Shown here: piece by piece, positions 2,097 through 22,743 of the stretch | Position numbering within the stretch: position 1 is the stretch's first letter | Layout: each line of letters starts with the position of its first letter | Source of the DNA: a virus | Taxonomy: Duplodnaviria > Heunggongvirae > Uroviricota > Caudoviricetes | IMG/VR virus record: IMGVR_UViG_3300038443_000660 | Location: 66,082 to 130,081 of that record | Reading direction: 5' to 3' (one strand) | Length of the DNA: 64,000 nucleotides | Translations under genes and position numbers: made by a program | The notes under the pieces: generated by a model | Told to the model about the DNA's origin: nothing | Seen by the model: the letters and a program-made list of their open reading frames with translations, nothing else | Database searches by the model: none

Positions 2097-2279
2097 CCTC
2101 TATTCAACTAATGTGTTTGTATTTCATAGATAATATATTGTCAAGACCTTTTATATAAAAAAGAGTAGTGGTTATCCACTACTCTTTCTTCATACGCTCT
2201 TGATGCGTCCATCGTTATCCCAATCTCATTGCAAGCGGTCGCCCCATGTATTGAGTGTGCCGAAGATTGAGCGTATTAT

Positions 2280-2480
2280 CTTTCAAAACCGTTTTCTAAT
2301 TCATACAATCTATCTAATTAACCTAAATGTTCTTAGCTAACCGAAACCGTTTACAAACATTTTAATCATCCTACCGTTTTCTAATTCATACAATCTATCT
2401 AATTAAAAACTAAATGTTCTTAGCTAAAGGAAATCATTCACGAACATTTATCTAATTCCTACTTTTCAAACATAATCTAT
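2280..2480. repeat. iteron-like direct repeats (2 full ~55 bp copies plus a partial third)
   Basis: accgttttctaattcatacaatctatctaatta..taaatgttcttagctaa occurs at ~2289-2340 and ~2374-2428; a related tctaattcctac...aatctatcaatctaa lies at ~2450-2478; the region has no long ORF. Confidence 0.6.
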
Positions 2481-2566
2481 CAATCTAACACACTAGAAAG
2501 AGGAACGGGTTACATGACTTTATCTCCTGTCTGTTTCACTCAATCTCAACTCAACCCTACATTTAT

Positions 2567-3848: not shown

Positions 3849-5717
3849 ATGTCATTTAAGCATTTCATTACCGAAGCCTCTTTTAATTCCAAAGATGTTC
3901 CAGAAGTAATCAAAAAGGTTTCAAATATCGTATCAGATAAGCTTGGCAAGAAGTTGTATCCATACAATCAAACCGGTTATCAGGAATTGATGTCTGGTGG
4001 AAAAACATATCAATGTTATTTATTCTTCATGGACGACTGTAAAGCAGTAAGATTTAACACAATTAATGGAACTTTTGATTCTATTGAAATCTGGAATAAG
4101 TATAAAACGAATGGTATCGATGAACCGAAATCAGATTTCACTATCCGCCTAGATGGAATGAATATTCTAAAGGTTATTGATTCGCTTGTCAACGTGATTA
4201 AGAAGCCACGAGAAGGAACATATCGCATCAACGTAAACGAAGATTCTGACCAAAATAAGCAGATGATTTTTGAATCAAATGCTGCCGAAGAAGCCGCTAG
4301 ACTTGGATTGCAAAATCTTGGTTATGGTCGATATGGTCGTGAGATTGACGGCGAGATGGTTCAAACACATAGAGTTGATAAGTTGCGTGATCGATTGGTC
4401 GATTTTCAACCTACAGCACCAGAATCCAGAAAGAAGCAAGTCAAAGACCCTCATGACTGGCACATGATGGCAATTAAAACATTTGGTGATACCAAAAATC
4501 TTTCAAGATTATCGTGGTCCGATGTTGAAATCATTGCTGCCAAAAATGGCGTCACTATTCCCGGTTGGGTTAGAGCATCCGGTGTAGGCAAGGGGAAGAA
4601 CAAGACATTTTCTTCTGTTCCATCAGCGCATCTTACGCAACCCGCCGAAACCATGCAGCAGGCCGGTGAACATAAAGGCGTTCAATATTTTGCGAAAATA
4701 TCGCCTCGTGATCCTATCACCAATAAATTTACTTCTGTCAAAGATGATGAATACGCTCAACGCTTGACGAAAATGATGGATGCAGCCCTGAATGCCCCGT
4801 CACACGATGTGATTGAAAAAGAAATGGTCGATCCAGATACACTTTTTGGTAGAATGTCTGACCTAATTAAACTTATCGTCAAAGGCGTTTCTCCATCGTT
4901 GTTCATTTATGGTGGTCCCGGTATTGGTAAAACATTCATTGTTAACAAAACATTGAAAGAAGCTGGTTTGAAAAAGAATCAGGATTACTACATCGTTAAG
5001 GGTAAAATCACACCAACAGCCCTTTATCAAACTCTTTATACCCATAGAAATGGTAATACTATGTTGGTGTTTGACGATGCCGACTCCGCATTTAGAACAG
5101 AAGATTCAGCAAATATTTTGAAAGCCGCTCTTGATTCGTATGAAGAAAGAGAAATTTCATATTCATCCGCCAGAACCATTAACGTAGATAAGTGGTCTGA
5201 TGAAAAACGTGAAGCATATGAAGCTAAACTAGATAAGCATTTGTTGTCTATCGGTGATGACGATGACGATGACGATCTTGAAGACGATGACGATTTTGGT
5301 GCCGATGACAATGCGGCCTTTCCCGGCAATGGTCGTGGTATGAATAAAGGTGAAAAAAAGAAAAAGAAAAAAGAAGAAAAGATAACCAAACTTCCTTCAA
5401 AATTCAAATTCGATGGAAAAATCATCTTCATTTCAAACTTGGCTAGGGACCAAGTTGACGACGCTGTTCTTTCTCGTTCATATAAGATTGATATGGAAAT
5501 GACGGCTGAACAACGCTTCAAGCGCATGGAAAGCATTCTGCCGTATGTTGTACCAGAAGTTGAAGATACAGAGTTGAAAAAGCGTGTCATGGAAGCAATC
5601 AAAGTTAACCACAAGCTTGGTAAACTTGACCTTCCATCCATGAGAATGTTTGAATCTGGTATTAAAGTTGCAGCTTCTGGTTTACCTAACTGGAAGGAAC
5701 TATTAGATTATATCTAA
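3849..5717 (+). CDS. AAA+ ATPase with ~300-aa N-terminal domain of unknown function and poly-Asp/poly-Lys linker
   Basis: Walker A GGPGIGKT, Walker B MLVFDDAD and sensor region AVLSRSYKID; DDDDDDDLEDDDD then KKKKKKEEK; one of only two plus-strand genes. Confidence 0.75.
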   Translation: MSFKHFITEASFNSKDVPEVIKKVSNIVSDKLGKKLYPYNQTGYQELMSGGKTYQCYLFFMDDCKAVRFNTINGTFDSIEIWNKYKTNGIDEPKSDFTIRLDGMNILKVIDSLVNVIKKPREGTYRINVNEDSDQNKQMIFESNAAEEAARLGLQNLGYGRYGREIDGEMVQTHRVDKLRDRLVDFQPTAPESRKKQVKDPHDWHMMAIKTFGDTKNLSRLSWSDVEIIAAKNGVTIPGWVRASGVGKGKNKTFSSVPSAHLTQPAETMQQAGEHKGVQYFAKISPRDPITNKFTSVKDDEYAQRLTKMMDAALNAPSHDVIEKEMVDPDTLFGRMSDLIKLIVKGVSPSLFIYGGPGIGKTFIVNKTLKEAGLKKNQDYYIVKGKITPTALYQTLYTHRNGNTMLVFDDADSAFRTEDSANILKAALDSYEEREISYSSARTINVDKWSDEKREAYEAKLDKHLLSIGDDDDDDDLEDDDDFGADDNAAFPGNGRGMNKGEKKKKKKEEKITKLPSKFKFDGKIIFISNLARDQVDDAVLSRSYKIDMEMTAEQRFKRMESILPYVVPEVEDTELKKRVMEAIKVNHKLGKLDLPSMRMFESGIKVAASGLPNWKELLDYI

Positions 5718-5756: not shown

Positions 5757-5860
5757 TGGTAGGGGAAGTCAGACTCGAACTGACAATTGATATGCATATG
5801 CTTAACCGGAACATATCGGCGGCTCTACACCGCTGTGTCTACCAATTTCACCATTCCCCT
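5757..5860 (-). tRNA. class II tRNA, anticodon ambiguous (UAG-Leu or GUA-Tyr), unusually long (~104 nt)
   Basis: Acceptor AGGGGAA/TTCCCCT with CCA, 3-bp D stem, T-loop TTCGAGT; anticodon loop TGTAGAG has G at position 33; variable region ~35 nt. Confidence 0.45.
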
Positions 5861-7767: not shown

Positions 7768-7799
7768 ATTCATTCCCTCTTTCACAAGTTCATTTATAT

Positions 7800-7827
7800 A
7801 ATACAAAAATGTAGGTGAATGTCAACG
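7800..7827 (-). promoter_or_regulatory. sigma70-like promoter TTGACA-N16-TATTAT (conserved family)
   Basis: Minus strand: TTGACATTCACCTACATTTTTGTATTAT. Confidence 0.6.
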
Positions 7828-8597: not shown

Positions 8598-8625
8598 ATA
8601 TTATTGAAATTTGTAGAAATGTCAA
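8598..8625 (-). promoter_or_regulatory. sigma70-like promoter TTGACA-N16-TAATAT (conserved family)
   Basis: Minus strand: TTGACATTTCTACAAATTTCAATAATAT. Confidence 0.6.
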
Positions 8626-8630: not shown

Positions 8631-8660
8631 AAATAAAAAAGAAGGGGATTTCTCCCCTTC
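8631..8660 (-). terminator. rho-independent terminator
   Basis: Hairpin gaagggga-tttc-tccccttc followed on the minus strand by TTTTTTATTT, just downstream of the DUF932 gene. Confidence 0.65.
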
Positions 8661-8663
8661 CTG

Positions 8664-9641
8664 TTATGCAGCTTCGGCCATTTCCAAAGCAAGGTTCAGC
8701 GCTCGAACTTTCAGGTCACGAGTCGTACCATACCATGCGTTGTTGAGCCGGTTTTCTTGGGAACGGCCAAGCTGGTGGTCAGACATATAGGTGATGGTAT
8801 TGAAAAGCTGCCAATACGTCCCTTCACCAAGTTCAGCGCCGGGTTGCGTTTCCATGAATTCCAACGCCTTGATTGCGTTCCTAGAACCTTTCTCTTTCTT
8901 TTCTTCGTCCTTGGAATTGGAAGGAAATAGCTTCTGGAAGTATTCCTTGACCAAATCCTTCTTGTATTTCTTTGTAATCAGGAATTCAGCCCGCTCACGG
9001 TATTCAGTCAGATTTTCCTTGGCGGCGAACAGAGTTTCTTTGACCACTTCCGGGTCAAATTTCTGGTCATGGTTCATCTTGACAATTTTCGCTGATGCCT
9101 TGGAAAGGGCGAGGGTTAGTGTATTATTGCACACCACTCGCACGTCCGTCTGGTCAACGATGATTGCTCGACCAAATTCATGAGGATTAGAAAACAGAAG
9201 GTAATCCTCAATCACGTCTTCCTTGTTACCAAAGCGAAGCCGGAATTTTTCCTTCGTCTTCGCCAGTGCCCAAGTACGGCGTCCTTTGCAAATCGAACCG
9301 GCAGTGTTCATTTCCAATTCGCCAGCCCGAACGAATTCATCGAAAAATTCGAACGCCTTTTCATTCTGCAAAGGTTCCCAATTATCAGGAACAAAAGTCA
9401 GAATCGAATTGTCTGTGTCACGAACAAGCGCCGTCATGGTCGTCTGCCGCAGGTCATCTCCGTTCTTCATATACAGTGGCTGTTTAGAGACGGTCCAGTC
9501 CAATCCAGCAGCTACCAGCATTTCATGTGGTGTCAGGTCATTGGAAACCTTCGTACCCAAACCGTGCCAGCACGGTTCACCTGAATACGCCATGGATGCT
9601 TTTCCGCCAACCATTTCAAGATTATGAGACATTATGTTCAC
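8664..9641 (-). CDS. DUF932 / phage-plasmid-like protein (TIGR03299-type)
   Basis: 325 aa with the family's length and overall pattern (N-terminal MNIMSHNL...PCWHGLG); flanked by a promoter and a terminator; GC-richer than its surroundings. Confidence 0.5.
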   Translation of the reverse strand: MNIMSHNLEMVGGKASMAYSGEPCWHGLGTKVSNDLTPHEMLVAAGLDWTVSKQPLYMKNGDDLRQTTMTALVRDTDNSILTFVPDNWEPLQNEKAFEFFDEFVRAGELEMNTAGSICKGRRTWALAKTKEKFRLRFGNKEDVIEDYLLFSNPHEFGRAIIVDQTDVRVVCNNTLTLALSKASAKIVKMNHDQKFDPEVVKETLFAAKENLTEYRERAEFLITKKYKKDLVKEYFQKLFPSNSKDEEKKEKGSRNAIKALEFMETQPGAELGEGTYWQLFNTITYMSDHQLGRSQENRLNNAWYGTTRDLKVRALNLALEMAEAA

Positions 9642-9750: not shown

Positions 9751-9780
9751 AATAAAAAAAGCCGGGTAAAACCCCGGCCA
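9751..9780 (-). terminator. rho-independent terminator
   Basis: gccggg-taaaac-cccggc hairpin with TTTTTTTATTTTT on the minus strand. Confidence 0.6.
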
Positions 9781-10514: not shown

Positions 10515-10542
10515 TCCGAATCTCCTATTCACTTCGATTTAT

Positions 10543-10570
10543 ATATTATCGAAATCTAGGAGAATGTCAA
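10543..10570 (-). promoter_or_regulatory. sigma70-like promoter TTGACA-N16-TAATAT (conserved family)
   Basis: Minus strand: TTGACATTCTCCTAGATTTCGATAATAT; divergent from the plus-strand gene at 10626. Confidence 0.6.
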
Positions 10571-11709: not shown

Positions 11710-11737
11710 ATAATATCAAATTATAGGAGAATGTCAA
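11710..11737 (-). promoter_or_regulatory. sigma70-like promoter TTGACA-N16-TATTAT (conserved family)
   Basis: Minus strand: TTGACATTCTCCTATAATTTGATATTAT. Confidence 0.6.
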
Positions 11738-12034: not shown

Positions 12035-12346
12035 CTAAAACGTCCGTCCGTCGATGATTTCTTTAATGGCTTTGGTTGGTTGAATACCAAAATGCGTATC
12101 GAATTTTCCACGAGCCTTGTAGATTTGTTCAATGGTAGTTTTCGAATTTCTATCTTTAGTATCCTCATATAAAGCGTCAATAGCTTTATCAAGAATCTCG
12201 TTAAAATCTTTGGTTAGCTGTTCATATTCGTCCTCGGTCTGAACAGCATCGACCAATTGCCAATATCTCGTTTCCGCCGCTTCAATTTCAGGAAGCAGTT
12301 TTCGGGTATGATTGTATCTCGGCGTCTTTTCGATAATGTTCGTCAT
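12035..12346 (-). CDS. hypothetical protein
   Basis: 103 aa acidic ORF downstream of a promoter. Confidence 0.4.
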   Translation of the reverse strand: MTNIIEKTPRYNHTRKLLPEIEAAETRYWQLVDAVQTEDEYEQLTKDFNEILDKAIDALYEDTKDRNSKTTIEQIYKARGKFDTHFGIQPTKAIKEIIDGRTF

Positions 12347-12376: not shown

Positions 12377-12404
12377 AATATAGCATAACCTATTGGAATG
12401 TCAA
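12377..12404 (-). promoter_or_regulatory. sigma70-like promoter TTGACA-N16-TATATT
   Basis: Minus strand: TTGACATTCCAATAGGTTATGCTATATT. Confidence 0.55.
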
Positions 12405-12430: not shown

Positions 12431-12466
12431 TGCAAAAACGGGGCCTGCCATATTGACAAACCCCGT
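12431..12466 (-). terminator. rho-independent terminator
   Basis: acgggg...ccccgt hairpin followed on the minus strand by TTTTTGC, downstream of the GapR-like gene. Confidence 0.5.
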
Positions 12467-12489: not shown

Positions 12490-12750
12490 TTAGACCATCC
12501 CTAGCGCCGCTTTATACAAATCCAAAATGGATTCTTCTTCCTGCCGTTCGGCAGCATCCTTCTTACGCATGGAGACAATCTGTCGGATGGCCTTGGTATC
12601 AAAACCAGTGCCCTTCGCCTCGGCATAGACTTCCTTGATGTCCGTGGAAATCGAATCCTTTTCTTCCGTCAACCGTTCAATTCGTTCGATGAATGCTCTT
12701 AGCTGGCCAGCCGCAACCGTCTGTGACGTTTCTGTAATTTCTTCGCTCAA
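12490..12750 (-). CDS. GapR-like DNA-binding protein (DUF2312/UPF0335)
   Basis: [49 protein letters not shown] matches the conserved GapR core. Confidence 0.65.
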
Positions 12751-13040: not shown

Positions 13041-13277
13041 TTACATCCTCGGATACATTGATTGCATTGATACTGGCGCACCATAACTTCCTGAACATGT
13101 TTCACAATGAAAAAGATGTTCTTCTACAGAGTAACACGAATCTGGAATGGAAATAGAAGACGTTTTTTCTGTAACCCTCATGAATCGACCACAGCTAGAA
13201 CACTTGATAGAATTCGAACAAATAATTACTTTGCGCATGATTGATACTCCATTTGAGGTATAGAATATCAATATCAT
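13041..13277 (-). CDS. zinc-ribbon protein
   Basis: 78 aa with CSSCGRF...CETCSG Cys pairs. Confidence 0.4.
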   Translation of the reverse strand: MILIFYTSNGVSIMRKVIICSNSIKCSSCGRFMRVTEKTSSISIPDSCYSVEEHLFHCETCSGSYGAPVSMQSMYPRM

Positions 13278-13286
13278 TAACTAAAG

Positions 13287-13646
13287 TCAATGAATTTTGT
13301 TTTTATTTGCTGATAGATTCCACATAAATGAATCGAATTTATGATATTCTACTAGTGTCCTTTTGACAGATGTATAGTAATAATAAGAACATTGTCCATT
13401 AGACCATTGTATTCTTATTTTTGAATAATCATGAAATTTTGGTTTTTTCGGTTTCTTTAATGGTTTTCTAAAAATTTTTCTAAAGAAATTCGATACTTTG
13501 AATGTTTGTATACGTCTTATATTACATTCTTTGGAATGGCACCACGGTATAATAACACCGTAGTCTCTAACATGTTCGGCATTGATTTCGAGGGAACTAA
13601 ATTCTCTATCCTCCATTGTATTTTCGAATCGATACATATTAACCAT
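13287..13646 (-). CDS. hypothetical protein
   Basis: 119 aa ORF. Confidence 0.35.
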   Translation of the reverse strand: MVNMYRFENTMEDREFSSLEINAEHVRDYGVIIPWCHSKECNIRRIQTFKVSNFFRKIFRKPLKKPKKPKFHDYSKIRIQWSNGQCSYYYYTSVKRTLVEYHKFDSFMWNLSANKNKIH

Positions 13647-14067
13647 TTGTAAACATCCTCAATTCATTTCTCTTGGCCATCAGTAGTTTTCCAAGATGAT
13701 TGTGACCGACACCATCACAAACGCCCCAAAATTTATCTCCCCATGTGTTCCCCTCTACCAATTCTTCATCGCCCGTCGCTAGTAATTTGTCGGCTAATTC
13801 TCGATCTTCAAATTTGAAATTCAGCCACATGCACATGACCGGAATTTTTATTTTATCCCAATCTTTTCGCATATCGCAAAACTGGCCAAGTATCTTAGCT
13901 TTACCCGGCGTTGGTGCGTTTCTGATTTCTTCCCGTTGGGCTTTGTTTCTGGTCTTACATGCCTGATATCCATGTTCAACGGTAGGATATAATTTACCAC
14001 CAAACACGATTGGTGATTCGTAAAAATTTGATAAGAAGCGATATTCGCCGTGGAAATTGTCAATCAT
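13639..14067 (-). CDS. NADAR-domain protein (YbiA-like N-glycosidase / ADP-ribose processing)
   Basis: FLSNFYESPIVFGGKLYPTVEHGYQACK...GNTWGDKFWGV is the NADAR/DUF1768 signature. Confidence 0.65.
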   Translation of the reverse strand: MIDNFHGEYRFLSNFYESPIVFGGKLYPTVEHGYQACKTRNKAQREEIRNAPTPGKAKILGQFCDMRKDWDKIKIPVMCMWLNFKFEDRELADKLLATGDEELVEGNTWGDKFWGVCDGVGHNHLGKLLMAKRNELRMFTNG

Positions 14068-15088
14068 TTTTTAATTCGTTGATTTCTTTGGCGTTTCCGA
14101 AAAACCAATGGGTAGCGGTTTGAACATGGTTTTCCCTGACATATTTCCCGACATTATTACGAAAATCTCTCCACAAGAAATCCCCCGCTCGTCGGATGAC
14201 AAAGCCTTCCACGTTGGCGGATTTTCCGTTAACTTCTCGGATGATTCTTTCAAGTTCTTTTTCGTCATATTTTCCTCGATACAGAATAGGAACGTGAGTG
14301 ATTCCTAATAGATTGAACCATTCTACAGTTTCATCCCATGGCAGACATCTCAAACCATGCCAAATAGAGAACCCCATGAGATATGACGGTAGATTATCAT
14401 ATTTGATTGAGTGTTTGGCATATAAATTTTCCGCACAAATCCGCCAATCATCCGGCAAGTCATAGGCAAAATTTTGTGCGAAATTTTTTGTCCAATCTCT
14501 GGACCAGTGATTGCGACCATCCACGGAACGAGCATGGATATATCCGTCCGAATAAATTGTGGTATTTTCACCATCCATTTTTTCGGTAATGACAACATCT
14601 TGACCGTGGAAAAAGTCCATGGATTTCATCATGCGGTCATCATCATTCATGCCGGGAGACATAACGACATGATAAGTCCGTGGGTACTTCATTCTGGTAG
14701 TGTATAAATCAAGAACACCACCTTGTTTCAAAATCTTTTGGACAGATTCGTCATCAAACAATTCGCCACGAACACGCTGCCCATTTTCTAAAACAATATC
14801 TCCCCATTTTGTGTAGGAAACATCGGAATAAAAATGTTCTGGCAAAGCAGGTTTCAATATGCCTGCATATTCTCTGATTTGCTCGACAGATATTAATGTT
14901 TGTTCACATTCAATATGATGCTTTTCACAAACGGAAGCGCCGTTTTCGAGATAGTAGCCGCCATCAGAGAACAATCGCCTTTCCAATATATGGTGAGCGT
15001 CAACAGCATCTTCACCACAGACAACGCATTTATGGTTGTCTCTGGCAAACACACCTTCTCTAAAATCGTCTCTGGACAGTAGTTTCAT
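14060..15088 (-). CDS. HNH endonuclease domain fused to RNA-ligase (Rnl-family nucleotidyltransferase) domain
   Basis: N-term HKCVVCGEDAVDAHHILERR...CEKHH (HNH); then EKMDGEN (KxDG motif I), VEGFVIRR (motif IV) and NVGKYVRENH (motif V). Confidence 0.55.
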   Translation of the reverse strand: MKLLSRDDFREGVFARDNHKCVVCGEDAVDAHHILERRLFSDGGYYLENGASVCEKHHIECEQTLISVEQIREYAGILKPALPEHFYSDVSYTKWGDIVLENGQRVRGELFDDESVQKILKQGGVLDLYTTRMKYPRTYHVVMSPGMNDDDRMMKSMDFFHGQDVVITEKMDGENTTIYSDGYIHARSVDGRNHWSRDWTKNFAQNFAYDLPDDWRICAENLYAKHSIKYDNLPSYLMGFSIWHGLRCLPWDETVEWFNLLGITHVPILYRGKYDEKELERIIREVNGKSANVEGFVIRRAGDFLWRDFRNNVGKYVRENHVQTATHWFFGNAKEINELKND

Positions 15089-15266
15089 AAAAAGAATCCT
15101 TTAGCATAATCAATACACTAAAGGATTAAGTTTGTCAATGTTAAATCAATGAATAACCGATTAACGCTACGAGTACGATTATCCAGAACAAACCAATGAA
15201 AAATGAAAATTCACCGTTTGAATATCTAAACCATATCTTAAACCAGTCTGGCATTTGTCGCTCTAA

Positions 15267-15908
15267 TCACTGAATGTATAGAGTTGGGTAGGCAAGGAAG
15301 GCGGTCCATGCCGCCGTCCCATTCTTCTTCAAGTGACGGAGCCGCCCCTTGATTTCCGAAAGCTTGAACTTCGGCTTGATATCAGCCTCGATGTTAGCCA
15401 TATAGGTCCAAACAACATCCGTGTACCGACCCTTAGCATCCTTGGCATCACTCATGGCGATACCGACCTTCTGGACACGAGTCTTGCTCCACTCGGAATA
15501 TCCACCGTAAACTCGTTCAGGACCAACCCAGAACAGAACACCGGTAGTGCCGACCGGAACCTTGCGGCCCTTGACAACCGTAACAGTATCACCCTTTACA
15601 GGCTTACGGAGTGCAGCAAGATATCCGGCAAAAACATCACGGCGAAGCTTCTTATAAGCCCAAGCATCAGCCTTGGCCTTATTCTCGGCAGTAACATCAA
15701 GAGAGGCAGTACCACCACCAGCGAACCGAGTCGTTGCATACTCATACTTAGTGATTTTCTGGTTCTCGTCATCCCATGCAATTACATAGAAATCCGAGTC
15801 GTGATAGCCGTTATACTCACGCATGGCGATAACACCGTCCTGAAACAGAACCTTCTCACCACCGTCACGATTAGGCATATAAACAGGCATGACAATCTCC
15901 ATTTCCAA
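15267..15908 (-). CDS. hypothetical protein
   Basis: 213 aa, GC-richer ORF; promoter-like TTGACA at 15954-15959. Confidence 0.45.
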   Translation of the reverse strand: MEMEIVMPVYMPNRDGGEKVLFQDGVIAMREYNGYHDSDFYVIAWDDENQKITKYEYATTRFAGGGTASLDVTAENKAKADAWAYKKLRRDVFAGYLAALRKPVKGDTVTVVKGRKVPVGTTGVLFWVGPERVYGGYSEWSKTRVQKVGIAMSDAKDAKGRYTDVVWTYMANIEADIKPKFKLSEIKGRLRHLKKNGTAAWTAFLAYPTLYIQ

Positions 15909-15969
15909 CCTCGATTATTTACATAATCAAAATTTATAAGATTGTCAAGTTATTAAATTATCAAAATTC

Positions 15970-16521
15970 TTACATATCATCGGTAAAGAATTTTGCAGGA
16001 TTGTATAATTGATGAAGCCGCTTTAGAGATTCTTTTGCTGTTTTGTGAACGATAAATGTGCCACCAGAATTAACCCATAGGTCCATATATTTTGTTCTGT
16101 CATCAATTAGAATGTCGCCGGGAGAACAGTAAAAGTGTTTCTCTTTCGATTTACAAACAATCGTCGGAATGTTCGGAAAATGTTCTCTACCCCAACGAAA
16201 TTTTTGTAAATATCCCCATTCGGCTGGCGAACCGGTTAGAATAGCAACGTCAAAATTATTATCGATAGCCCATTCTGAAACACCAGATACCAATTCAAAA
16301 GCATCCGGCATAGGTTTGAGTCGTTCAAAGAAAAACGGGTCAATAGAATGTGTATGATTCCACATTTCTTCTTTGGTCATTCTTCGCCTAATTGTTTCAG
16401 CGTCAAATTCCCAAAATTCAAACCATCGCTGATTAAAATCTGCGAGTACCCCATCCATATCGATGTAAACTGTGTTGTCAGTCATAGGTTGTCTTTTATT
16501 TTGTGATGAACATATAATCAA
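15970..16521 (-). CDS. 5'(3')-deoxyribonucleotidase (NT5C/HAD family)
   Basis: VYIDMDGVLADFNQRWFEFW at the N-terminus is typical of NT5C-type deoxyribonucleotidases. Confidence 0.7.
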   Translation of the reverse strand: MIICSSQNKRQPMTDNTVYIDMDGVLADFNQRWFEFWEFDAETIRRRMTKEEMWNHTHSIDPFFFERLKPMPDAFELVSGVSEWAIDNNFDVAILTGSPAEWGYLQKFRWGREHFPNIPTIVCKSKEKHFYCSPGDILIDDRTKYMDLWVNSGGTFIVHKTAKESLKRLHQLYNPAKFFTDDM

Positions 16522-16703
16522 TTTTTTCGTTAAGAAAATTTAATACATTTTGTGCATTTTGTTTGGTGCTGTTTCGAAGAACCATACAAATAGATAAATC
16601 ACTATCTGAACAAATTATATAATAACTCGTATGTTTTTGGTTATTGTTGGTTGAATTGCGTTCGATTTCTTTAATTTCAAATTGCATTTCGAACCTTTGA
16701 AAT

Positions 16704-16780
16704 TTGGTGCCAGATTGTGGTTTCGATCCACATCCTATAGTTCTTCAAACTATCGCTTCTACCAAGTTAGCTTATCTGGC
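16704..16780 (-). tRNA. tRNA-Phe (GAA)
   Basis: Acceptor GCCAGAT/ATCTGGC, anticodon loop TTGAAGA, T-loop TTCGAAA-like (GGATCGAAACC), CCA encoded. Confidence 0.65.
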
Positions 16781-16782
16781 AT

Positions 16783-16865
16783 TGGTGCTGGTGGAGAGAC
16801 TCGAACTCCCGATGTTTGTATGACGCCTTACAAGAGCGTTGCAGTCGCCGCTGTGCCACACCAGC
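16783..16865 (-). tRNA. tRNA-Thr (UGU), atypically long (83 nt)
   Basis: Acceptor GCTGGTG/CACCAGC, anticodon stem ACGCT/GGCGT with loop CTTGTAA, T-loop TTCGAGT; 12-nt variable region. Confidence 0.5.
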
Positions 16866-16875
16866 ATTCTTACTA

Positions 16876-16904
16876 TATTTATAACAAAAACAATGGTTTG
16901 TCAA
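16876..16904 (-). promoter_or_regulatory. sigma70-like promoter upstream of the tRNA-Thr/Phe pair
   Basis: Minus strand: TTGACAAACCATTGTTTTTGTTATAAATA. Confidence 0.45.
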
Positions 16905-16957
16905 TAGATAAATGGGAGAAGTGTTTAATTTCTCCCATTTATCTTGGTTAGCAAAGG

Positions 16958-17494
16958 TTAACGGCGACCCTTGCCCTTATCGCCCTTATGCCCATTATTG
17001 GAATTATCCTTATCAACCTGTCCCGGAGGGCCGGAATGATGGTGATTTTTATCACCATAGCCGTTACCGGGCTTATCCCTATCGGGCGTGTTCGCATGAC
17101 CATGACCATGACCATGATTACCAGCGTGACCATGATTACCATGGTTTCCGTGATTGCCGTGGTTTCCATGATTACCATGATGGTCGTGATGACCGTGGCT
17201 GTGATGCCCATGATGGCCATGGTGGCCATGATGTCCGTGTCCATGTCCCGGATTTGTAGGCCCGTTTCCGTCATCACCGCCGCCAGAACCATCGTCACCA
17301 CCGGACGGGTCTGTTGGGCTAGTCGGACTGGCTACTGCATTACGAACGGCTGGATGGTCCCCAGAGCGAACGCAACGCATATCATGATACGGCTTGGCAA
17401 GACACTCGTAGCTGACATTCGGACCAGCGAACGCATATCCGGTAACGAACAGAGTTGCGACACAACTCATTACAAACACAAAAAACTTGTTCAT
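16958..17494 (-). CDS. secreted histidine-rich (HGH/GNH repeat) protein
   Basis: Signal peptide MNKFFVFVMSCVATLFVTGYAFA; then HGHGHHGHHGHHGHHSHGHHDHHGNHGNHGNHGNHGNHGH encoded by GC-rich 15-nt tandem DNA repeats. Confidence 0.6.
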   Translation of the reverse strand: MNKFFVFVMSCVATLFVTGYAFAGPNVSYECLAKPYHDMRCVRSGDHPAVRNAVASPTSPTDPSGGDDGSGGGDDGNGPTNPGHGHGHHGHHGHHGHHSHGHHDHHGNHGNHGNHGNHGNHGHAGNHGHGHGHANTPDRDKPGNGYGDKNHHHSGPPGQVDKDNSNNGHKGDKGKGRR

Positions 17495-17629
17495 ACTCAC
17501 TTCTCCATCATTTTCGTGTTTCAAAATGAAACACTAGTACATGACTCGTACCATTACGAGTCATTAGTTCACATATATACGAGAAATCTATAAATTACAA
17601 GTGTTCTCTTATAATATGGTAAATATTAT

Positions 17630-17941
17630 TTACCACAAATCATAGTTGGTTAAGTCGAATTTTTCACCGGATGAATGTTCGACAACATAGATAACCCCAA
17701 TTGAAGTAGGAGTCATCTGATAAGTAAACTCACCACCGATAGCGCCCAATTCCTCAATCGGAACTTCGACTTTCTTTTTCCAAGTTTGGAATTTTTTCAG
17801 AGTGGCTTTATCCACTTGAATCGTCAGACCGCAGAAGTCCATATCAACTTGATTGGCAATTTTCTTTTTTAATTTTTCCTTGCGGTCAGGGGAAAACAAC
17901 TCAACTAACTTGTTTAATTTTTTTGTCATAATTATCACCAA
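17630..17941 (-). CDS. hypothetical protein
   Basis: 103 aa ORF. Confidence 0.4.
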   Translation of the reverse strand: MVIIMTKKLNKLVELFSPDRKEKLKKKIANQVDMDFCGLTIQVDKATLKKFQTWKKKVEVPIEELGAIGGEFTYQMTPTSIGVIYVVEHSSGEKFDLTNYDLW

Positions 17942-17952
17942 TTCAATATTTT

Positions 17953-18027
17953 TGGAGCGGGCAACCGATACCGCCTCGGTCTTTCCAGTTTGGAAAACTG
18001 GCGCACATCTATCTATACCATACCCGC
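17953..18027 (-). tRNA. tRNA-Gly (UCC)-like with aberrant D arm and T-loop
   Basis: Acceptor GCGGGTA/TGCCCGC plus CCA, anticodon stem CCAGT/ACTGG with loop TTTCCAA; T-loop GGCGGTA is non-canonical and the D stem is poor. Confidence 0.4.
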
Positions 18028-18035
18028 TTATTTAA

Positions 18036-18236
18036 TCAATAATCCCAAATGACCAAATCGGCTTTGCCTCTAATAACCAGCCATAATGCTCTTAGCGTTC
18101 TTCGAACAGAGAATATTCTTTCTGGTCTGGCAAACCCAACCTTACCATCCTTTGTTTTATACATAGTCATATTAGACGGATATGTCAAATGATTAATATG
18201 GTAAATATTGGGGCTAGTAGGCATTTTACTGCGCAT
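18036..18236 (-). CDS. hypothetical protein
   Basis: 66 aa ORF. Confidence 0.3.
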   Translation of the reverse strand: MRSKMPTSPNIYHINHLTYPSNMTMYKTKDGKVGFARPERIFSVRRTLRALWLVIRGKADLVIWDY

Positions 18237-18237
18237 T

Positions 18238-18432
18238 TTACTGCTTTCCTACAAATTCTTTGGCTTCGGCCTCGGTATCACACACTTTGATAACCTGCCA
18301 CTTGAATTCAGGGTCATCGTCATCGAAATGTACCAACGTCATATTCCATACGTTGAATTTACCATCAAGACGACTGCCAATTTCAAACGGCAGACTATCG
18401 GTGAACCAATTAGAAGTTTCGATCTTGTTCAT
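18238..18432 (-). CDS. hypothetical protein
   Basis: 64 aa acidic ORF. Confidence 0.3.
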   Translation of the reverse strand: MNKIETSNWFTDSLPFEIGSRLDGKFNVWNMTLVHFDDDDPEFKWQVIKVCDTEAEAKEFVGKQ

Positions 18433-18460
18433 GTTTTATTTATGCCTTCTATTAAGAAAG

Positions 18461-19621
18461 TTACTGGAATTCCGTTAAATTTTTGCCCTTGCGGTTCAAA
18501 TAATCTTCGGAAACGAATTTGAGAATCACTCTGCCTAGTTCATCGTTTCGCTGTTCCCTAATTGGAGTAACAACTACACCCTCACGGATATTTTCACCAT
18601 TTCCAACTACAGTTTCACCATCAACATATTTTGATACTTCCTCTTGCGTATCTACAATGTCAAGAATAGGGACATGTTGAATATCAAGTTGTTTGAAGAA
18701 CTCGTATTTAAGATCGGCATCCATGTAACCGGTAATGTCCATGAAATCAAATGCTCTAAAGGTTGGTGTTTTTTGTGAATAGTGCAAATCTTGAACACCA
18801 ACACCAAATATTTCACCAAACAAGAAGTATGGACTAATTGACACGCCGATTTGTTTGATACTGTCAATAATACCAGTTTCTTTTAGAGTTTTAACATATA
18901 AATTCTTTGCATTGTTTTCATTATCTTTGAAAACTAGCCCAGATGCACCGAAACCCTTGGAAAATACAACAATCGAATTGCCCTTTCCATCAGAAATCAA
19001 ATCAGGATGTTCAAGATTTGGAATGAATCCAATTCCACAGAAAGTTCCATGCAACTTTTCAGTAATGTAGAACGGACCAATATCGTTTGTCAAAACATTT
19101 GGATATTTTTTGACGTTTTCGATGTCGTATTTTGGAATAGACACGTAAGAGCCGATGTATAAAATTTCACCGTCCATATATGCTGGAATTACTGGTTCAT
19201 ACTTGGTAATACCCAAGAACTCTGAAACGTCATCCCCGACTTGTAGGCAATGTGAAGAATCGCCTACAGAATTATAAAGGATGTTCCCGCCCATTTTCTT
19301 GATTACGGGTAGTAGAATACCTTCTGATAGGACGTTCCGAAGACGAATTGGTCTTACTCGATTACCATCGGGTCCACCAAGCATCCCCTTGTTATTTTTT
19401 TCATCCCAGAAGCCATCTTTCAAAATGTAATCTGGAACGATAGAATCAGCCTGTACATAGACAACCCAATCGCCGGGATTATATCTATGTGAACCATCTT
19501 CAAGCTTGCCAGAAACAATTTGATAACTGAAACCTTTAAGTTTGATAATCGATAACCTATCAGCATTCGGATGGTCGATTACATTCTCGACCACCATTAC
19601 TTTTGATTCAAAATTTGCCAT
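18461..19621 (-). CDS. RNA ligase (Rnl family) with N-terminal tRNA-binding OB domain
   Basis: N-term VIDHPNADRLSIIKLKGF...LRNVLSEGIL (CsaA/Trbp111-type tRNA-binding domain); ITEKLHGT (motif I Lys), REGVVVTP (IV), RVILKFVSEDY (V). Confidence 0.6.
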   Translation of the reverse strand: MANFESKVMVVENVIDHPNADRLSIIKLKGFSYQIVSGKLEDGSHRYNPGDWVVYVQADSIVPDYILKDGFWDEKNNKGMLGGPDGNRVRPIRLRNVLSEGILLPVIKKMGGNILYNSVGDSSHCLQVGDDVSEFLGITKYEPVIPAYMDGEILYIGSYVSIPKYDIENVKKYPNVLTNDIGPFYITEKLHGTFCGIGFIPNLEHPDLISDGKGNSIVVFSKGFGASGLVFKDNENNAKNLYVKTLKETGIIDSIKQIGVSISPYFLFGEIFGVGVQDLHYSQKTPTFRAFDFMDITGYMDADLKYEFFKQLDIQHVPILDIVDTQEEVSKYVDGETVVGNGENIREGVVVTPIREQRNDELGRVILKFVSEDYLNRKGKNLTEFQ

Positions 19622-19848
19622 AGTTTCTTTCGTTTTCTATTAATTTTTTTATTAAGCGTTTCAGAACCGAGAAATTCTTTTTTAGCAATCAAGCCATGTG
19701 CTTGACCTATCCAGTCAACTACATCTTCACGGCTTTTCGGATTACATTGTATAATAGGGTCAACACACAAATTTGTGTGTTTCAAAGCATCACGAACTTC
19801 TTTGGGAAAATTATCGTAATAAAGATTAAGATAGCGTATCTTGTTCAT
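19597..19848 (-). CDS. hypothetical protein
   Basis: 83 aa ORF. Confidence 0.35.
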   Translation of the reverse strand: MNKIRYLNLYYDNFPKEVRDALKHTNLCVDPIIQCNPKSREDVVDWIGQAHGLIAKKEFLGSETLNKKINRKRKKLWQILNQK

Positions 19849-19864
19849 GTAGTCAATTACATTT

Positions 19865-20413
19865 TTATTCGTCTTGAAAGAAATCTACAATATTTTTAAG
19901 AACATTCTTGTTCATGAGAATTTCGAAATGATTAGACTCAACTGGAATATAGTTGGCATCTTCGATACTCATTTGACTGGCTATAGAGACGACGCCATCG
20001 TTCCTTGAAAATAACCATGGATTATTACCGGAACATGTTACGTAAAGTTGATGCTGGACCGATATCGATTGTGTGTGTTTAATCAGTTTCTTTAATTCAT
20101 GACCAATTGTTTTTGGTGGCCAAAACGAGCCTATACCACCAATTGGTGCGGCCAAAGTTGCGATTTTGTTGACATTCAATCCAGTATTAGACAGAGCGAT
20201 TGCAAGAACACCACCTAGAGAATGTCCGACAATGTTTACAGGTTCTTGACTTTTGTTTAAAATTTCATTTCGAATCGTATCCAAAACCTTTAACAAACGT
20301 TCCGATGAATCATATTTTACAACGATTTCATTCTTCCATTTGTGAATTTCTCGAAAATAATTAAAAGTAGATGGGGCAGAGAATGCCCCATGTATGAATA
20401 CCGTTGGATGCAT
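19865..20413 (-). CDS. alpha/beta-hydrolase (lipase/esterase-like)
   Basis: Nucleophile elbow VGHSLGG; 182 aa. Confidence 0.55.
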   Translation of the reverse strand: MHPTVFIHGAFSAPSTFNYFREIHKWKNEIVVKYDSSERLLKVLDTIRNEILNKSQEPVNIVGHSLGGVLAIALSNTGLNVNKIATLAAPIGGIGSFWPPKTIGHELKKLIKHTQSISVQHQLYVTCSGNNPWLFSRNDGVVSIASQMSIEDANYIPVESNHFEILMNKNVLKNIVDFFQDE

Positions 20414-20414
20414 A

Positions 20415-21455
20415 CTAGTATTTAGGTGTCGGTATCATATCCTCGATGATAGTTTTGACTTGTTCGGTTCTTTCTTCAAAATCAGAAGATGAAATAATTT
20501 CAAACGGTTTCTGCCATGCCTCCAATTGAGCCATGATTGAATGATAAAAATTCCAGCGCTTGGATTCGTTATCGGAAATTCGAAAACCGTCTTGCACCCA
20601 TGGAACAGTAGGAGCCAACAAAATATATTTGTCAATTTGTTGGTTTTCGGCAAACTTATATAATTCAGAGTTGTCATCATTTGGAAGCCAGATATCAGCA
20701 TACAGTGCGGTAATGAGTGCTTCCGTATCGGTAACGACAATTGGACACAACTCGTTCGAACGGGCCGAATCAATCATCATTTTTTGAGTTTTTTGAATTA
20801 TACGGAAATCCGTATAATCCAATTCATTTTTGCGATTGACGGCAAGAAAGCGCCCATATTCAGGAACCGGCCATGCAGTCAGGTCGCTTCCAAGTTCTTT
20901 GACAAGAGTCGATTTACCGGTTGATTCTGGACCAACAACAGCTACGACTTTCGACAAATCATGTCGAACATAAGACGGAAGCATGCTGAAGTTCACTTCA
21001 AAATTGTTTCTGATATCAGTAGCAGAGATTGGAACAGTTTCCCTGTCAGGGTCTACCGGCACCCAAACACAATTCAATTCCTTGGCGATTCGTTCACCAT
21101 ACAAATCAGAAGTGAATACATGTGATGGATGAATTGAAATGAAATTGAGAATGCGTTTTGTATCATCTAACCATCTAATCCAGTATGATTCATCAGTAAT
21201 CGTACCGAATGCATCCTTCTGAACGCTCTTATCGAATTCTTCTTGTTCGACAATAACAACATCACCACGACGATTATAATCGAAATTTGACACACATTTC
21301 CGAATCCAGCGCTTTCGAGCATCAAATGAATATGGGTCATTGTCATCAACACCAACAAGGACAATGAGATAATCACAATTTACCATTGCTGTGTTGATAA
21401 GGAACTCATGTCCCTTGGTGAACGGAAGAAATTTACCTAGAGTAAGACCAATCAT
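20415..21455 (-). CDS. nadR: NadR-like bifunctional NMN adenylyltransferase / ribosylnicotinamide kinase
   Basis: N-term GKFLPFTKGHEFLI (nucleotidyltransferase H-x-G-H-type motif); C-terminal P-loop VGPESTGKST. Confidence 0.65.
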   Translation of the reverse strand: MIGLTLGKFLPFTKGHEFLINTAMVNCDYLIVLVGVDDNDPYSFDARKRWIRKCVSNFDYNRRGDVVIVEQEEFDKSVQKDAFGTITDESYWIRWLDDTKRILNFISIHPSHVFTSDLYGERIAKELNCVWVPVDPDRETVPISATDIRNNFEVNFSMLPSYVRHDLSKVVAVVGPESTGKSTLVKELGSDLTAWPVPEYGRFLAVNRKNELDYTDFRIIQKTQKMMIDSARSNELCPIVVTDTEALITALYADIWLPNDDNSELYKFAENQQIDKYILLAPTVPWVQDGFRISDNESKRWNFYHSIMAQLEAWQKPFEIISSSDFEERTEQVKTIIEDMIPTPKY

Positions 21456-21931: not shown

Positions 21932-21944
21932 ACTCTAATTTCCT

Positions 21945-22652: not shown

Positions 22653-22743
22653 TCTAAATCCTATTCAGAATCAATAAGTTCTTTCCAACGTTCAGTAGAA
22701 CACGTTATTTCTGTTGTCAATCTGTTTTTCACTATATGTGGTT

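Follow-up and report, generated by a model that had tools for sequence, protein, structure and literature searches.

A sequence of about 45 bp recurs along the minus strand of an uncultured 242-kb metagenomic jumbo phage, well beyond chance, and its copies are probably promoters for the primary sigma70 (RpoD) holoenzyme of the host, directed leftward into small, mostly orphan genes of an accessory and probably early region. We analysed a 64,000-nt stretch of this genome, hereafter the window, in which the original prediction had recognized promoters of the sigma70 type preceding tRNAs and leftward operons; this core reading was backed by every computational test run. Phage T4 and related phages already offer well-known examples of such promoter families. 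The host is likely an alphaproteobacterium, judged solely from GapR homologs. Under the explanation that we favor, the host holoenzyme would read these promoters and expression from them would be early. The similarity that reaches beyond the hexamers may have two non-exclusive causes, namely selection for very strong promoters that out-compete those of the host, as in the T4 early promoters, and recombination that copies promoters or promoter-plus-leader cassettes between variable islands, as in PeSLs.

A repeated element on the gene strand

All copies lie on the minus strand, nearly all of them between genes; this strand also carries 112 of the 116 crude gene calls and all 19 tRNAs. The window has 66 TTGACA hexamers on the minus strand and 27 on the plus strand, of which 28 and 3, respectively, fall within intergenic DNA, which makes up 19.5% of the window. 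Scored with a generic sigma70 measure, 11 minus-strand sites and no plus-strand site reach 14 or more (shuffles, 0.67 +/- 0.70), and 28 and 3 sites, respectively, reach 13 or more (shuffles, 6.6 +/- 2.5). With at most one mismatch, TTGACA-N16-TATTAT is found at seven sites, all seven on the minus strand, against 1.16 expected. Motif discovery, proposed in the original prediction as a check, returned the same motif when an unseeded Gibbs sampler was run on the intergenic regions of the window. The contrast between coding and intergenic DNA also went the predicted way: when sites are selected on their hexamers only (TTGACA-N16-TAnnnT), nine of ten are intergenic (binomial probability ~3e-6 by hand calculation, for an intergenic share of 19.5%) and all ten are on the gene strand. 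The generic hexamer score, the hexamer-only selection and the unseeded sampler replaced a 65-position weight matrix built from nine seed sites, which was overfitted and returned its own seeds.

The repeat had been described as at least ten nearly identical sites. It is real, but near-identity is limited to four copies, 7825, 40080, 11737 and 10570 (named, like all sites here, by the first base of the -35 hexamer), which have 29-34 of 37 positions in common by direct comparison; about eight others have diverged (Table 1). The first site had been placed at 7800-7827 and is actually at 7798-7825 on the minus strand, a shift of 2 nt; the coordinates 8598-8625, 10543-10570, 11710-11737, 12377-12404, 39015-39042, 40053-40080 and 59399-59427 were exact. 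Single coordinates given for variants were 4-6 nt off, and TTGACA in the variant sites begins at 2595, 9716, 15948, 16904, 38168, 48813, 48988 and 55113.

Table 1. Promoters and terminators located in the window (coordinates are window positions; R1 is the model trained on the window copies)
Feature	Start	End	Strand	Remarks
Class-A promoter	7781	7825	-	TTGACA 7825-7820, 16-bp spacer TTCACCTACATTTTTG, TATTAT 7803-7798, then ATAAATGAA; R1 35.3 bits
Class-A promoter	40036	40080	-	34/37 positions same as the 7825 copy; gene ATG 40024, offset 56
Class-A promoter	11693	11737	-	TTGACATTCTCCTATAATTTGATATTATATAAATGAA; first ATG 11695, offset 42
Class-A promoter	10526	10570	-	-10 TAATAT; likely ATG 10514 after GGAG
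Class-A promoter	38998	39042	-	Promoter + leader AAAAATGTAGGAAGAAAGAGG; second occurrence outside the window, L039 18517
Class-A promoter	8581	8625	-	TTGACATTTCTACAAATTTCAATAATAT; directly 3' of terminator 8639-8662
Diverged class-A promoter	12360	12404	-	TTGACATTCCAATAGG...TATATT; directly 3' of terminator 12438-12466
Diverged class-A promoter	2551	2595	-	TTGACATTCTATAGAATCCGATTATATTAATAAATGTAGGG; same place kept in L033, L034, L036
Diverged member	59383	59427	-	CTTGACA-N16-CTATAT; adjoins tRNA-Ile 59448-59539, just after the tRNA
Diverged member	55069	55113	-	TTGACATTTTCGATAG...TATTCT; gene ATG 55049
Member, -35 TTGACT	30596	30640	-	Precedes DUF6927 gene; spacer + leader form a 16-bp hairpin
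Member	15904	15948	-	TTGACAATCTTATAAATTTTGATTATGTAAATAAT; kept in L036; hairpin around -10
tRNA-type promoter	53654	53691	-	TTGACA 38 nt 5' of tRNA-Lys
tRNA-type promoter	48776	48813	-	TTGACA-N17-TATAAATA; 38 nt 5' of tRNA-Ser(tga)
tRNA-type promoter	38131	38168	-	TTGACA-N17-TATAAATA; 38 nt 5' of tRNA-like sequence 38047-38130
tRNA-type promoter	28524	28562	-	TTGACA-N17-TATAAATA; 39 nt 5' of tRNA-Val
tRNA-type promoter	27645	27683	-	TTGACA-N17-TAGTAT; 39 nt 5' of tRNA-Asn
tRNA-type promoter	16866	16904	-	TTGACA...TATAAATA; 39 nt 5' of tRNA-Thr/Phe pair
tRNA-type promoter	1043	1081	-	TTGACA-N17-TACATT; 39 nt 5' of tRNA-Met
Generic sigma70-like promoter, DUF932 gene	9672	9716	-	TTGACA-N17-GATATT; after terminator 9760-9779
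Generic sigma70-like promoter	2100	2144	-	TTGACA-N17-TACAAA; after terminator 2160-2187; gene ATG 2087
Intrinsic terminator	8639	8662	-	AGGAAGGGGAGAAATCCCCTTCTT + T-run; 14 nt 5' of promoter 8625
Intrinsic terminator	12438	12466	-	ACGGGG...CCCCGT + TTTTT; 5' of promoter 12404
Intrinsic terminator	9760	9779	-	GGCCGGGGTTTTACCCGGCT + TTTTTTT; 5' of promoter 9716

Sequence anatomy and conservation beyond the hexamers

Of the 12 members, 11 have a perfect -35 element, TTGACA, and one has TTGACT. Ten of the 12 have TATTAT, TAATAT, TATATT or TATTCT at 16 bp; in 59427 the -10 lies one base further, so that CTATAT at 16 bp is the same as TATATA at 17 bp, and in 15948 the 16-bp position holds TTATGT, which is no such -10 hexamer, with TATGTA at 17 bp. 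The family core comprises a 16-bp spacer, where 17 bp is canonical for sigma70, followed by a -10 of the form TA(T/A)TAT. Ahead of TTGACA, at ~-45 to -38, is an A-rich stretch with the consensus AAAAAA, and the -35 TTGACA is itself extended as TTGACATTC(T)C(C)TAnA. Past the -10, an AT-rich discriminator with an AAAT end leads to a purine at the predicted start, and the ribosome-binding site, GGAG or GAGG, is 7 nt ahead of the ATG in a leader of ~21-23 nt. Two finer points of the original prediction apply to part of the family: CTACA, which every copy was said to contain, is present in five of the 12 members, and the -10 is embedded in TATATAAAT in a minority of copies.

Conservation outside the -35 and -10, on the other hand, had been correctly anticipated, with strong similarity in the flank upstream, across the spacer and over the 12 bp past the -10 (z of 4 to 9). 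This was measured on the ten sites selected by their hexamers only, scoring only the unselected positions. Mean pairwise identity among them is 0.370 over the 12 bp on the upstream side, 0.446 within the spacer and 0.474 over the 12 bp past the -10, against 0.27 +/- 0.02 in random intergenic windows, where the observed values were reached in 0 of 2000 draws. The similarity is limited to the stretch between ~-45 and ~+10 and is therefore promoter-sized.

Within this stretch, the spacer block TTCTC-TA-A occupies a position at which sigma70 is not known to read bases, and a protein bound there would give the same sequence picture. The family could be a distinct temporal class that needs, besides host sigma70, a phage-encoded factor bound to the TTCTCCTAnA block or the discriminator, which might activate, repress or, like Alt or MotA/AsiA, modify the polymerase. 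We regard this as unlikely, even if several observations point to it: of the TTGACA hexamers in the window, 9 of the 66 on the minus strand continue with TTC, compared with 0 of the 27 on the plus strand; the block just past the -35 is also conserved in four related phages; and two promoter classes are indicated because generic promoters of the same genomes, e.g., that of the DUF932 gene, retain the hexamers only. Against it, ~50 scanned window proteins yield no Pfam match to a sigma factor, AsiA, MotA or an ADP-ribosyltransferase, the conserved block is without dyad symmetry, and the perfect host-type -35 is unlike that of MotA-dependent promoters. A narrower form of the proposal, which we find rather improbable, would make the class-A copies a regulatory class timed by a phage-encoded or phage-modified component that reads the post -35 block and the discriminator, with hairpins in a subset; the TTCTC-TA-A block is common to at least five related soil jumbo phages. 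If true, the class would amount to a new jumbo-phage takeover of an alphaproteobacterial host polymerase, and it is only if the spacer block is read by a phage factor that a new question is opened. From the extra conservation, the original prediction had concluded that a phage factor co-recognizes the sites or that they have a dual sigma70/late role, an inference that is not supported. No extra factor is needed because the T4 early promoters, which lack a DNA-binding co-factor, already show a comparable consensus beyond the hexamers (PMC2988021), and the conservation is also explained by recombinational spread of promoter copies, as in PeSLs (PMC2839356).

Two other roles for the conserved segment were rejected. 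Inspection of the alignment revealed no consistent dyad symmetry in the spacer, which speaks against an operator there, and the reverse complement has TATAAT but no -35 at a usable distance, which speaks against a divergent plus-strand promoter.

A separate tRNA promoter subfamily and the question of late transcription

The tRNA sites had been included in the 45-bp family. Promoter-like elements do lie there, but 16904, 38168, 48813 and others constitute a separate subfamily, TTGACA-N17-TATAAATA, in which TTGACA precedes the mature 5' end of seven tRNAs by 38-39 nt. This placement would put the predicted transcription start only ~2-4 nt 5' of the mature tRNA end. One of the seven, the tRNA-like sequence at 38047-38130, received no call by ARAGORN or Rfam. 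In full, TATAAATA occurs nine times on the minus strand of the window and never on the plus strand, and seven of these nine sites are the -10 of a tRNA promoter or lie just 5' of tRNAs, most with a -35 at 17 bp.

This strand bias, together with a TATAAAT past the -10 in five class-A copies, might suggest a dual element in which an early sigma70 promoter (TTGACA-16-TATTAT) overlaps a T4-type late TATAAAT for a gp55-like sigma. It would also fit that L037, which has DUF932 but is more distantly related, is T4-like, with gp32, gp59 and a gp33-type co-activator. Nevertheless, we consider the dual element highly improbable. The class-A copies read TATAAATG, TATAAATC or TATAAATT, never TATAAATA, and the full TATAAATA sites belong, as stated, mostly to tRNA promoters or tRNA upstream DNA. 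The TATAAA offset shifts between 27 (four copies) and 25 (three), is 10, inside the spacer, in 15948, and the segment is absent in four, so that five of the 12 members lack it in the -10 region; across the window, the distance of TATAAAT from TTGACA varies from 19 to 21 bp, whereas the TAWTAT hexamer is constant at 16 bp. The idea is further disfavored because relatives do not keep TATAAAT. Finally, the genes downstream are orphan accessory genes rather than virion genes, and the 84 kb read of the 242 kb contain no gp55 or gp33 gene and no late-transcription or virion genes.

Start codons, terminators and gene islands

Two start codons of the ORF track had been noted to fall within promoters, and they do: TTG 7806 is inside the spacer and GTG 10532 just past the -10. 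The likely true starts are ATG 7767 and ATG 10514, each 7 nt past GAGGG or GGAG, and in 10 of the 14 genes next to a promoter, 56-58 nt separate TTGACA from the start codon downstream. The diverged promoter 2595 is followed by ~450 nt without an ORF, in which a search for known RNA families gave nothing above noise.

A strong GGGG..CCCC terminator precedes six promoters (8625, 12404, 9716, 2144, 46853 and position 3299 of L038), and an upstream stem-loop is absent at 7825, 40080, 11737, 10570, 39042 and 2595; overall, stem-loops accompany ~6 of ~33 promoters, including 2-3 class-A copies. The genes 3' of the promoters have no Pfam match above threshold and match only three PHROG families, all of unknown function. 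Around 7825, 8625, 10570 and 11737, relatives lack homologs of 13 of the 14 small ORFs, and these orphan-gene islands are flanked by conserved anchors, viz., GapR with its neighboring 103-aa gene (12035-12346), DUF932 and a 622-aa NTPase. The gene orthologous to that behind 12404 is also preceded by promoters in L033, L034 and L035, and the place of the DUF932 promoter holds a TTGAC promoter in L033, L035 and L036 and TTGCAA in L034, the hexamers being conserved across relatives but not the spacer.

Copies in related phages and a possible role for recombination

Relatives were reached via DUF932 and via RNA ligase alignment, and R1 was scanned on four related phage contigs, L033-L036, with 58-68% identity in DUF932. 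It recovered 13 further copies, all on the gene strand and none on the other, nearly all directly 5' of called genes. The upstream half of the motif, TTGACATTCTCTAnA, is common to the different phages. Their -10 is TATAT(T/A) or CTATAT, followed by variable sequence, and the downstream half is genome-specific, reading ...TATTATATAAATGAA in the window phage versus ...TATATTCGTAAATGTAGG in L033 and L034. The family appears to be restricted to the near clade because R1 gave only seven weak matches in 673 kb of more distant jumbo phages. An exact-pattern scan gave no match in IMG/VR and, among metagenome contigs, one match each in 26 contigs, a chance-like result in a set from which the source contig and its relatives were absent; the 735-aa protein used as an IMG/VR probe found nothing, with no exact-product record, and megablast against the INPHARED phages gave no match.

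These comparisons bear on whether the similarity is mainly due to recent copying, with the elements marking boundaries of shuffled cassettes, as PeSL-like sites of homologous recombination, and promoter activity being secondary. We hold this to be possible, if distinctly less than probable. In its favor, the islands that hold the copies are hypervariable, made up of orphan genes and bounded by conserved anchors, some copies are paired with GGGG..CCCC terminators, and a downstream half that is specific to each genome fits homogenization within genomes. Moreover, ~60 nt of promoter and leader (39042 and L039 18517) are duplicated ~45 kb apart in front of genes that are seemingly unrelated, judged on their first residues only. 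Yet the similarity ends at the promoter edges instead of continuing into the flanks, a terminator is absent at most copies, and phages that are down to 58-68% protein identity still have the upstream half in common, which points to selection rather than to recent copying alone. Copying is, furthermore, compatible with promoter function and indeed presupposes it, so that it can stand beside host sigma70 recognition.

Predicted RNA hairpins in a subset of promoters

In T4, the lysozyme and soc genes have a known arrangement in which hairpins silence read-through transcripts. By analogy, the promoters could lie within RNA hairpins in which the spacer pairs with the leader and the ribosome-binding site, leaving read-through RNA silent and only local transcripts translated. 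We find this quite improbable as an account of the family, but it has some quantitative backing. Of 60 promoters, 11 have a spacer-leader duplex that beats shuffles, 8 of them among the 23 promoters of the window; of 60 control positions, 5 do (Fisher 1e-4 at promoters versus 0.23 at controls). On read-through RNA, the median unpaired probability of the ribosome-binding site is 0.18 for promoter-proximal versus 0.50 for internal genes (p = 0.01), and the mean accessibility of the promoter-proximal site rises from 0.28 to 0.52 in its own transcript. Some ortholog pairs differ in sequence and both fold: 15138 and L036 4914; 30640 and L033 19910, where the hairpin differs; and 15948 with its counterparts in L036 and L034. 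However, a stricter test with a fixed -14 to -6 window and upstream dinucleotide shuffles gave a Fisher p of 0.12 and singled out 2 of 18 sites as significant. No significant duplex is found at the core members 7825, 40080, 11737, 8625 and 12404, and the hairpin is hence a feature of a promoter subset rather than of the family. In the 10570 copy, the leader TAGGAGA is complementary to the spacer TCTCCTA; an anti-Shine-Dalgarno role for the TTCTCCTA spacer against this leader, suggestive in the other tests but non-significant in the stricter one and absent in the core copies, would likewise apply to a subset at most.

Comparison with known promoter systems

For this uncultured phage from soil and for its relatives, the analysis provides a usable map of >30 promoter sites that also marks operon boundaries and corrects start codons. 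The elements might also serve as strong, compact expression parts in the hosts, probably members of the rhizobia or of another alphaproteobacterial group.

Among the T4 promoter classes, the late one is echoed by TATAAAT in five class-A copies and by TATAAATA before several tRNAs. The differences are the perfect -35 found here, the lack of conservation of the segment in relatives and the accessory genes downstream; T4 late promoters have TATAAATA at the -10 with no need of a -35, while the class-A copies carry a related segment at a variable offset. T4 middle promoters have the MotA box (a/t)(a/t)TGCTT(t/c)a at -30 in place of a -35 (PMC2988021); the family has no TGCTT block and a perfect -35 instead.

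The rhizobial sigma70 consensus is CTTGAC-N17-CTATAT (PMC2873474). Copy 59427 matches it exactly, the host being likely alphaproteobacterial by the GapR argument only. A C precedes TTGAC in six of 12 copies, and the relatives' -10 sequences, TATAT(T/A) or CTATAT, are also like the consensus; in contrast, most window copies have TATTAT or TAATAT, one base closer.

According to Gentz and Bujard (1985), the early promoters of T5 are reportedly very strong, used by host polymerase and endowed with conserved blocks outside the -35 and -10, including the initially transcribed region. This genome region of T5 also has tRNAs interleaved with small ORFs, as here, but its phage lineage is unrelated and its conserved blocks differ.

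PeSLs are promoter and terminator cassettes flanking orphan genes (PMC2839356). Those of RB49/phi1 and other T4-like phages resemble the present family in their repeated sigma70-like promoters, AT-rich upstream sequence and hyperplastic orphan regions (PMC2839356, PMC4122927), and a GGGG..CCCC terminator stem-loop lies directly ahead of some of our copies. Unlike PeSLs, the family as a whole does not carry the stem-loop, which is confined to a minority. For the recombination trait of PeSLs, the duplicated promoter and leader at 39042 and L039 18517 offer one indirect hint.

[quoted passage not shown] In both cases, dozens of copies with near-perfect host-type hexamers stand before early or accessory genes and tRNAs, the region upstream is rich in A, and consensus positions are also found outside the hexamers (PMC2988021). 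The present family differs in the sequence of that extra consensus, the lack of a consistent TGn, the 16-bp spacer and the probably alphaproteobacterial host. The architecture known from T4-like coliphages, in which families of very strong host-type promoters flank shuffled orphan genes, sometimes with terminators, is thus also present in a distant jumbo-phage lineage.

A promoter-sized repeat on the gene strand

The minus strand of the window, which holds 112 of the 116 ORFs of a crude gene call and all 19 tRNAs called by ARAGORN, carries 66 occurrences of TTGACA against 27 on the plus strand; in intergenic DNA, 19.5% of the window, the counts are 28 and three. Generic sigma70 scores of at least 14 are reached by 11 minus-strand sites and none on the plus strand (shuffles, 0.67), and scores of at least 13 by 28 and three, respectively (shuffles, 6.6). 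A Gibbs sampler given no seed and only the intergenic regions recovered the same motif. The strand and intergenic bias, the scores relative to shuffles and this unseeded discovery establish that the repeated promoter-like element of the original prediction exists. Its first site is present, with the sequence TTGACATTCACCTACATTTTTGTATTATATAAATGAA, at 7825-7789 on the minus strand, two bases away from its predicted coordinates; the other seven main sites lie where they had been placed, and the supposed variants are within 4-6 nt of their predicted positions. The description of the copies as nearly identical holds for 7825, 40080, 11737 and 10570 (29-34 of 37 positions), but only for these four.

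The claim that conservation extends past the hexamers was upheld by a non-circular test, in which sites were chosen by TTGACA-N16-TAnnnT alone (n=10, nine of them intergenic) and compared with random intergenic windows (0.27 +/- 0.02). At positions outside the selection, mean pairwise identity was 0.446 (z = 8.7) for the spacer, 0.474 (z = 9.0) for the 12 bp that follow the -10 and 0.370 (z = 4.1) for the 12 bp that precede the -35. Beyond about -45 and +10 the similarity is lost, and the unit is therefore promoter-sized.

Alignment of the family gives the consensus AAAAAA-n-C-n-C-TTGACATTCT-n-ATA-n-ATTT-nn-A-TATTAT-ATAAATGA. Two motifs originally taken as general are not: CTACA occurs in just five of the 12 members, and TATAAA lies at offset 27 in four copies, at offset 25 in three and is absent from four others, with copy 15948 having it at offset 10, within the spacer. 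As TA(T/A)TAT keeps a constant 16 bp from TTGACA, with TATAAAT drifting from 19 to 21 bp away, the -10 element is TAWTAT. Transcription is predicted to start at the G or A of ...AAATGAA. Of 14 promoter-proximal genes, 10 have TTGACA 56-58 nt ahead of the start codon; the leader would then be 21-23 nt long, with GGAG or GAGG 7 nt ahead of the ATG. This geometry supports the view that 7806 and 10532 are artefactual ORF starts and that the genes really begin at 7767 and 10514. In several copies a start codon followed immediately by a stop (ATGTAG) stands at the predicted transcription start, and in the near-identical copies the ATG there opens mini-ORFs of 3-10 codons; the conserved ATGTAG is probably just start-site context.

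Positions of promoter-associated, tRNA-like and anchoring features
Feature	Position	Strand	Remark
TTGACA of tRNA units	53691, 48813, 38168, 28562, 27683, 16904, 1081	-	38-39 nt before mature 5' end
Leu(UAG)-like tRNA-like sequence	38047-38130	-	behind promoter 38168; no ARAGORN call
tRNA-like sequence	~25545-25620	-	just upstream of tRNA-Glu; no ARAGORN call
tRNA-like sequence	5760-5860	-	Rfam only; no ARAGORN call
Promoters with hairpin	15096-15138, 15904-15948, 30596-30640, 10526-10570, 38998-39042, 13244-13290, 58683-58727	-	
ATGTAG at predicted start	39005-39010, 2556-2561	-	also L033 18313, L034 16986, L039 18517
ORF-free stretch behind promoter 2595	2100-2560	-	L033 18340-18920; L034 17010-17550; L036 17834-18366
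GapR anchor	12490-12750		conserved in relatives
103-aa gene neighbouring GapR, anchor	12035-12346		conserved in relatives
DUF932 anchor	8664-9641		conserved in relatives
622-aa NTPase anchor	3849-5717		conserved in relatives
Duplicate of promoter-plus-leader 39042	L039 18517-18576		
tRNA-repair and NAD-salvage genes	13639-23298, 32872-33999, 41069-43598, 46861-47319		densely packed
Loci with RNA-ligase hairpin	L049, L056-L058, L071, L073, L075, L077, L100 and others		

Relatives and the tRNA promoters

Homologs of DUF932 led to syntenic loci in the contigs of four related large phages (L033-L036; 58-68% identity) and to a more distant, T4-like phage (L037; 52%). A model of sequence alone, derived from the 12 copies in the window, found 13 copies in L033-L036, all on the gene strand and almost all immediately ahead of called genes, with none on the opposite strand and none in L037. 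Four further copies lie just outside the window in the same phage, and only seven weak matches came from 80 jumbo phages that are more distant and carry an RNA ligase (673 kb in all). The family is specific to the near clade. Copies in the relatives have the upstream half TTGACATTCTCTAnA in common, and their -10 is TATAT(T/A) at 16-17 bp; of generic promoters, such as that ahead of DUF932, only the hexamers are kept between phages. A phage factor, as originally suggested, may act here by binding the conserved spacer block, though this is less likely; no candidate for it turned up in the ~84 kb that was read.

The sites upstream of tRNAs, first counted as family members, form a separate subfamily. 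Seven tRNAs are preceded by TTGACA-N17-TATAAA(TA), or a weaker -10, with TTGACA at exactly 38-39 nt from the mature 5' end; the predicted leaders would be about 2-4 nt, which makes the units near-leaderless. The relatives have a similar geometry, the distance being 38-41 nt (L033 2295, L035 1444, L036 2357). All nine occurrences of the motif TATAAATA are on the minus strand. At tRNA-Leu(taa) (5964) and tRNA-Arg(tct) (~52105), both on the minus strand, ATAAATAGAAATAT directly precedes the mature 5' end; these are TATAAATA-only sites with no recognisable -35. The CCA end is gene-encoded in many of the tRNA genes.

These data bear on the suggestion that the promoters are dual, with TATAAAT serving as a late element. 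We disfavour it: TATAAAT floats in position, is not shared by the relatives' copies and stands ahead of accessory genes, the class-A copies never carry the full TATAAATA, and most full TATAAATA sites are tRNA promoters that also bear a proper -35. The best-supported reading is that the family consists of host sigma70/RpoD-type promoters, probably early, serving the accessory region, as supported in silico by strand, intergenic location, spacing, geometry and relatives. The observation is confirmed with corrections, and the speculative additions to it are unsupported.

Predicted hairpins at promoters and start codons

In a subset of promoters the spacer could base-pair with the leader and ribosome-binding site, which would keep read-through transcripts silent, an arrangement known from T4 lysozyme; one arm of the hairpin is the -35/-10 spacer, the other the leader or ribosome-binding site, and the -10 lies in the loop. 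Spacer-leader duplex energies are better than those of shuffles in 11 of 60 promoters versus five of 60 controls, in the read-through context the genes next to a promoter have less accessible ribosome-binding sites, and three orthologous promoter pairs retain a hairpin of differing sequence (counterparts at L036 4914, where the 12-bp stem is perfect, at L033 19910 and in L034). A stricter test of accessibility, however, did not reach significance, and no hairpin signal is seen at the core copies; the hairpin is a feature of a promoter subset, not of the family.

For the RNA ligase gene at 14060-15088, 54 distinct jumbo-phage orthologs were compared, and 13 of them have a strong hairpin (z < -2) directly upstream of or over the start codon, ~45 nt before the start. 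The stem sequences vary between phages, and the pattern suggests that the RNA ligase may be under conserved translational control.

Phage, host and module

The window lies in a 242,456-bp JGI metagenome contig, Ga0395904_0000039 (record 24037-88036), and no close relative was found for it among sequenced phages. GapR homologs occur almost exclusively in phages of Alphaproteobacteria (top match, a Mesorhizobium phage, 73% identity), and the RNA ligase is nearest to jumbo-phage enzymes, e.g., of Salicola SCTP-2, Ralstonia RsoM2USA and Caulobacter CcrBL9. We therefore regard the source as an uncultured jumbo phage whose host is probably an alphaproteobacterium. Its accessory-type genes include RNA ligases, a CCA-adding enzyme and a 2H phosphoesterase, alongside NadR-like, PnuC, NAD synthase, NADAR, GapR, DUF932 and homing-endonuclease-like ORFs. 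The tRNA-repair components (three RNA ligases, one just outside the window, PNKP-like phosphoesterases and the CCA-adding enzyme) and those of NAD salvage (NadR-like protein, PnuC transporter, NAD synthase and NADAR) together look like a counter-defence or metabolic module.

Predicted structured RNAs

At 56613-57036 on the minus strand, Rfam matches the GOLLD RNA (RF02032) with 168.5 bits, above the gathering score of 150 (E = 1.6e-45). The matched segment contains tRNA-Gln (56899-56972); a T5orf172-like ORF (57426-57956) lies just upstream, and a GGGCC..GGCCC terminator has its end at 56569. The match predicts that this soil jumbo phage carries a giant ornate RNA. Four phages conserve promoter 2595 together with its start region (TATATT-n-TAAATGTAGG), and in each of them 450-600 nt with conserved patches and no ORF follow. 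This stretch, which in the window has an internal direct repeat of ~50 nt, is a candidate non-coding RNA with no Rfam match. The GOLLD RNA, the near-leaderless tRNA units and the RNA-ligase start-codon hairpins may outrank the promoter family in interest.

Genomic setting and known systems

Between the conserved anchors the small ORFs are wholly different among phages, 13 of 14 lacking a homolog. Copies 7825, 8625, 10570 and 11737 are situated in these variable islands; for the genes that follow them, no Pfam family scores above threshold and the only PHROG matches are unnamed. Strong GGGG..CCCC-stem terminators lie directly upstream of 8625, 12404, 9716, 2144, 46853 and L038 3299. Promoter 39042 is repeated with its complete leader (…AAAAATGTAGGAAGAAAGAGG…ATG; ~60 nt, 38985-39042, minus strand) ~45 kb away, ahead of a seemingly unrelated gene, judged by first residues rather than alignment. 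A gene end plus -35, GAAAAAGTGAAAATAGTTAGAAAATTTTGAATTTCCTTGTTGACA, also occurs in two minus-strand copies (58397-58445 and 58154-58205); because the stretch after the second has no ORF, the region may be a decayed duplicated cassette.

This setting matches that of the promoter-early stem-loop cassettes (PeSLs) of T4-like phages. PeSLs are copies of a sigma70 promoter with an AT-rich stretch upstream and a terminator stem-loop; in hyperplastic regions they border orphan genes, and they mediate shuffling (PMC2839356, PMC4122927). Membership is only partial, since most copies lack the stem-loop. For the extra consensus, the direct precedent is the T4 early promoters, very effective competitors for host polymerase that have 'additional regions of consensus' besides UP, -35, TGn and -10 (PMC2988021). 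Finally, the rhizobial consensus CTTGAC-N17-CTATAT (PMC2873474) fits copy 59427 and the -10 elements of the relatives, consistent with the inferred host group.
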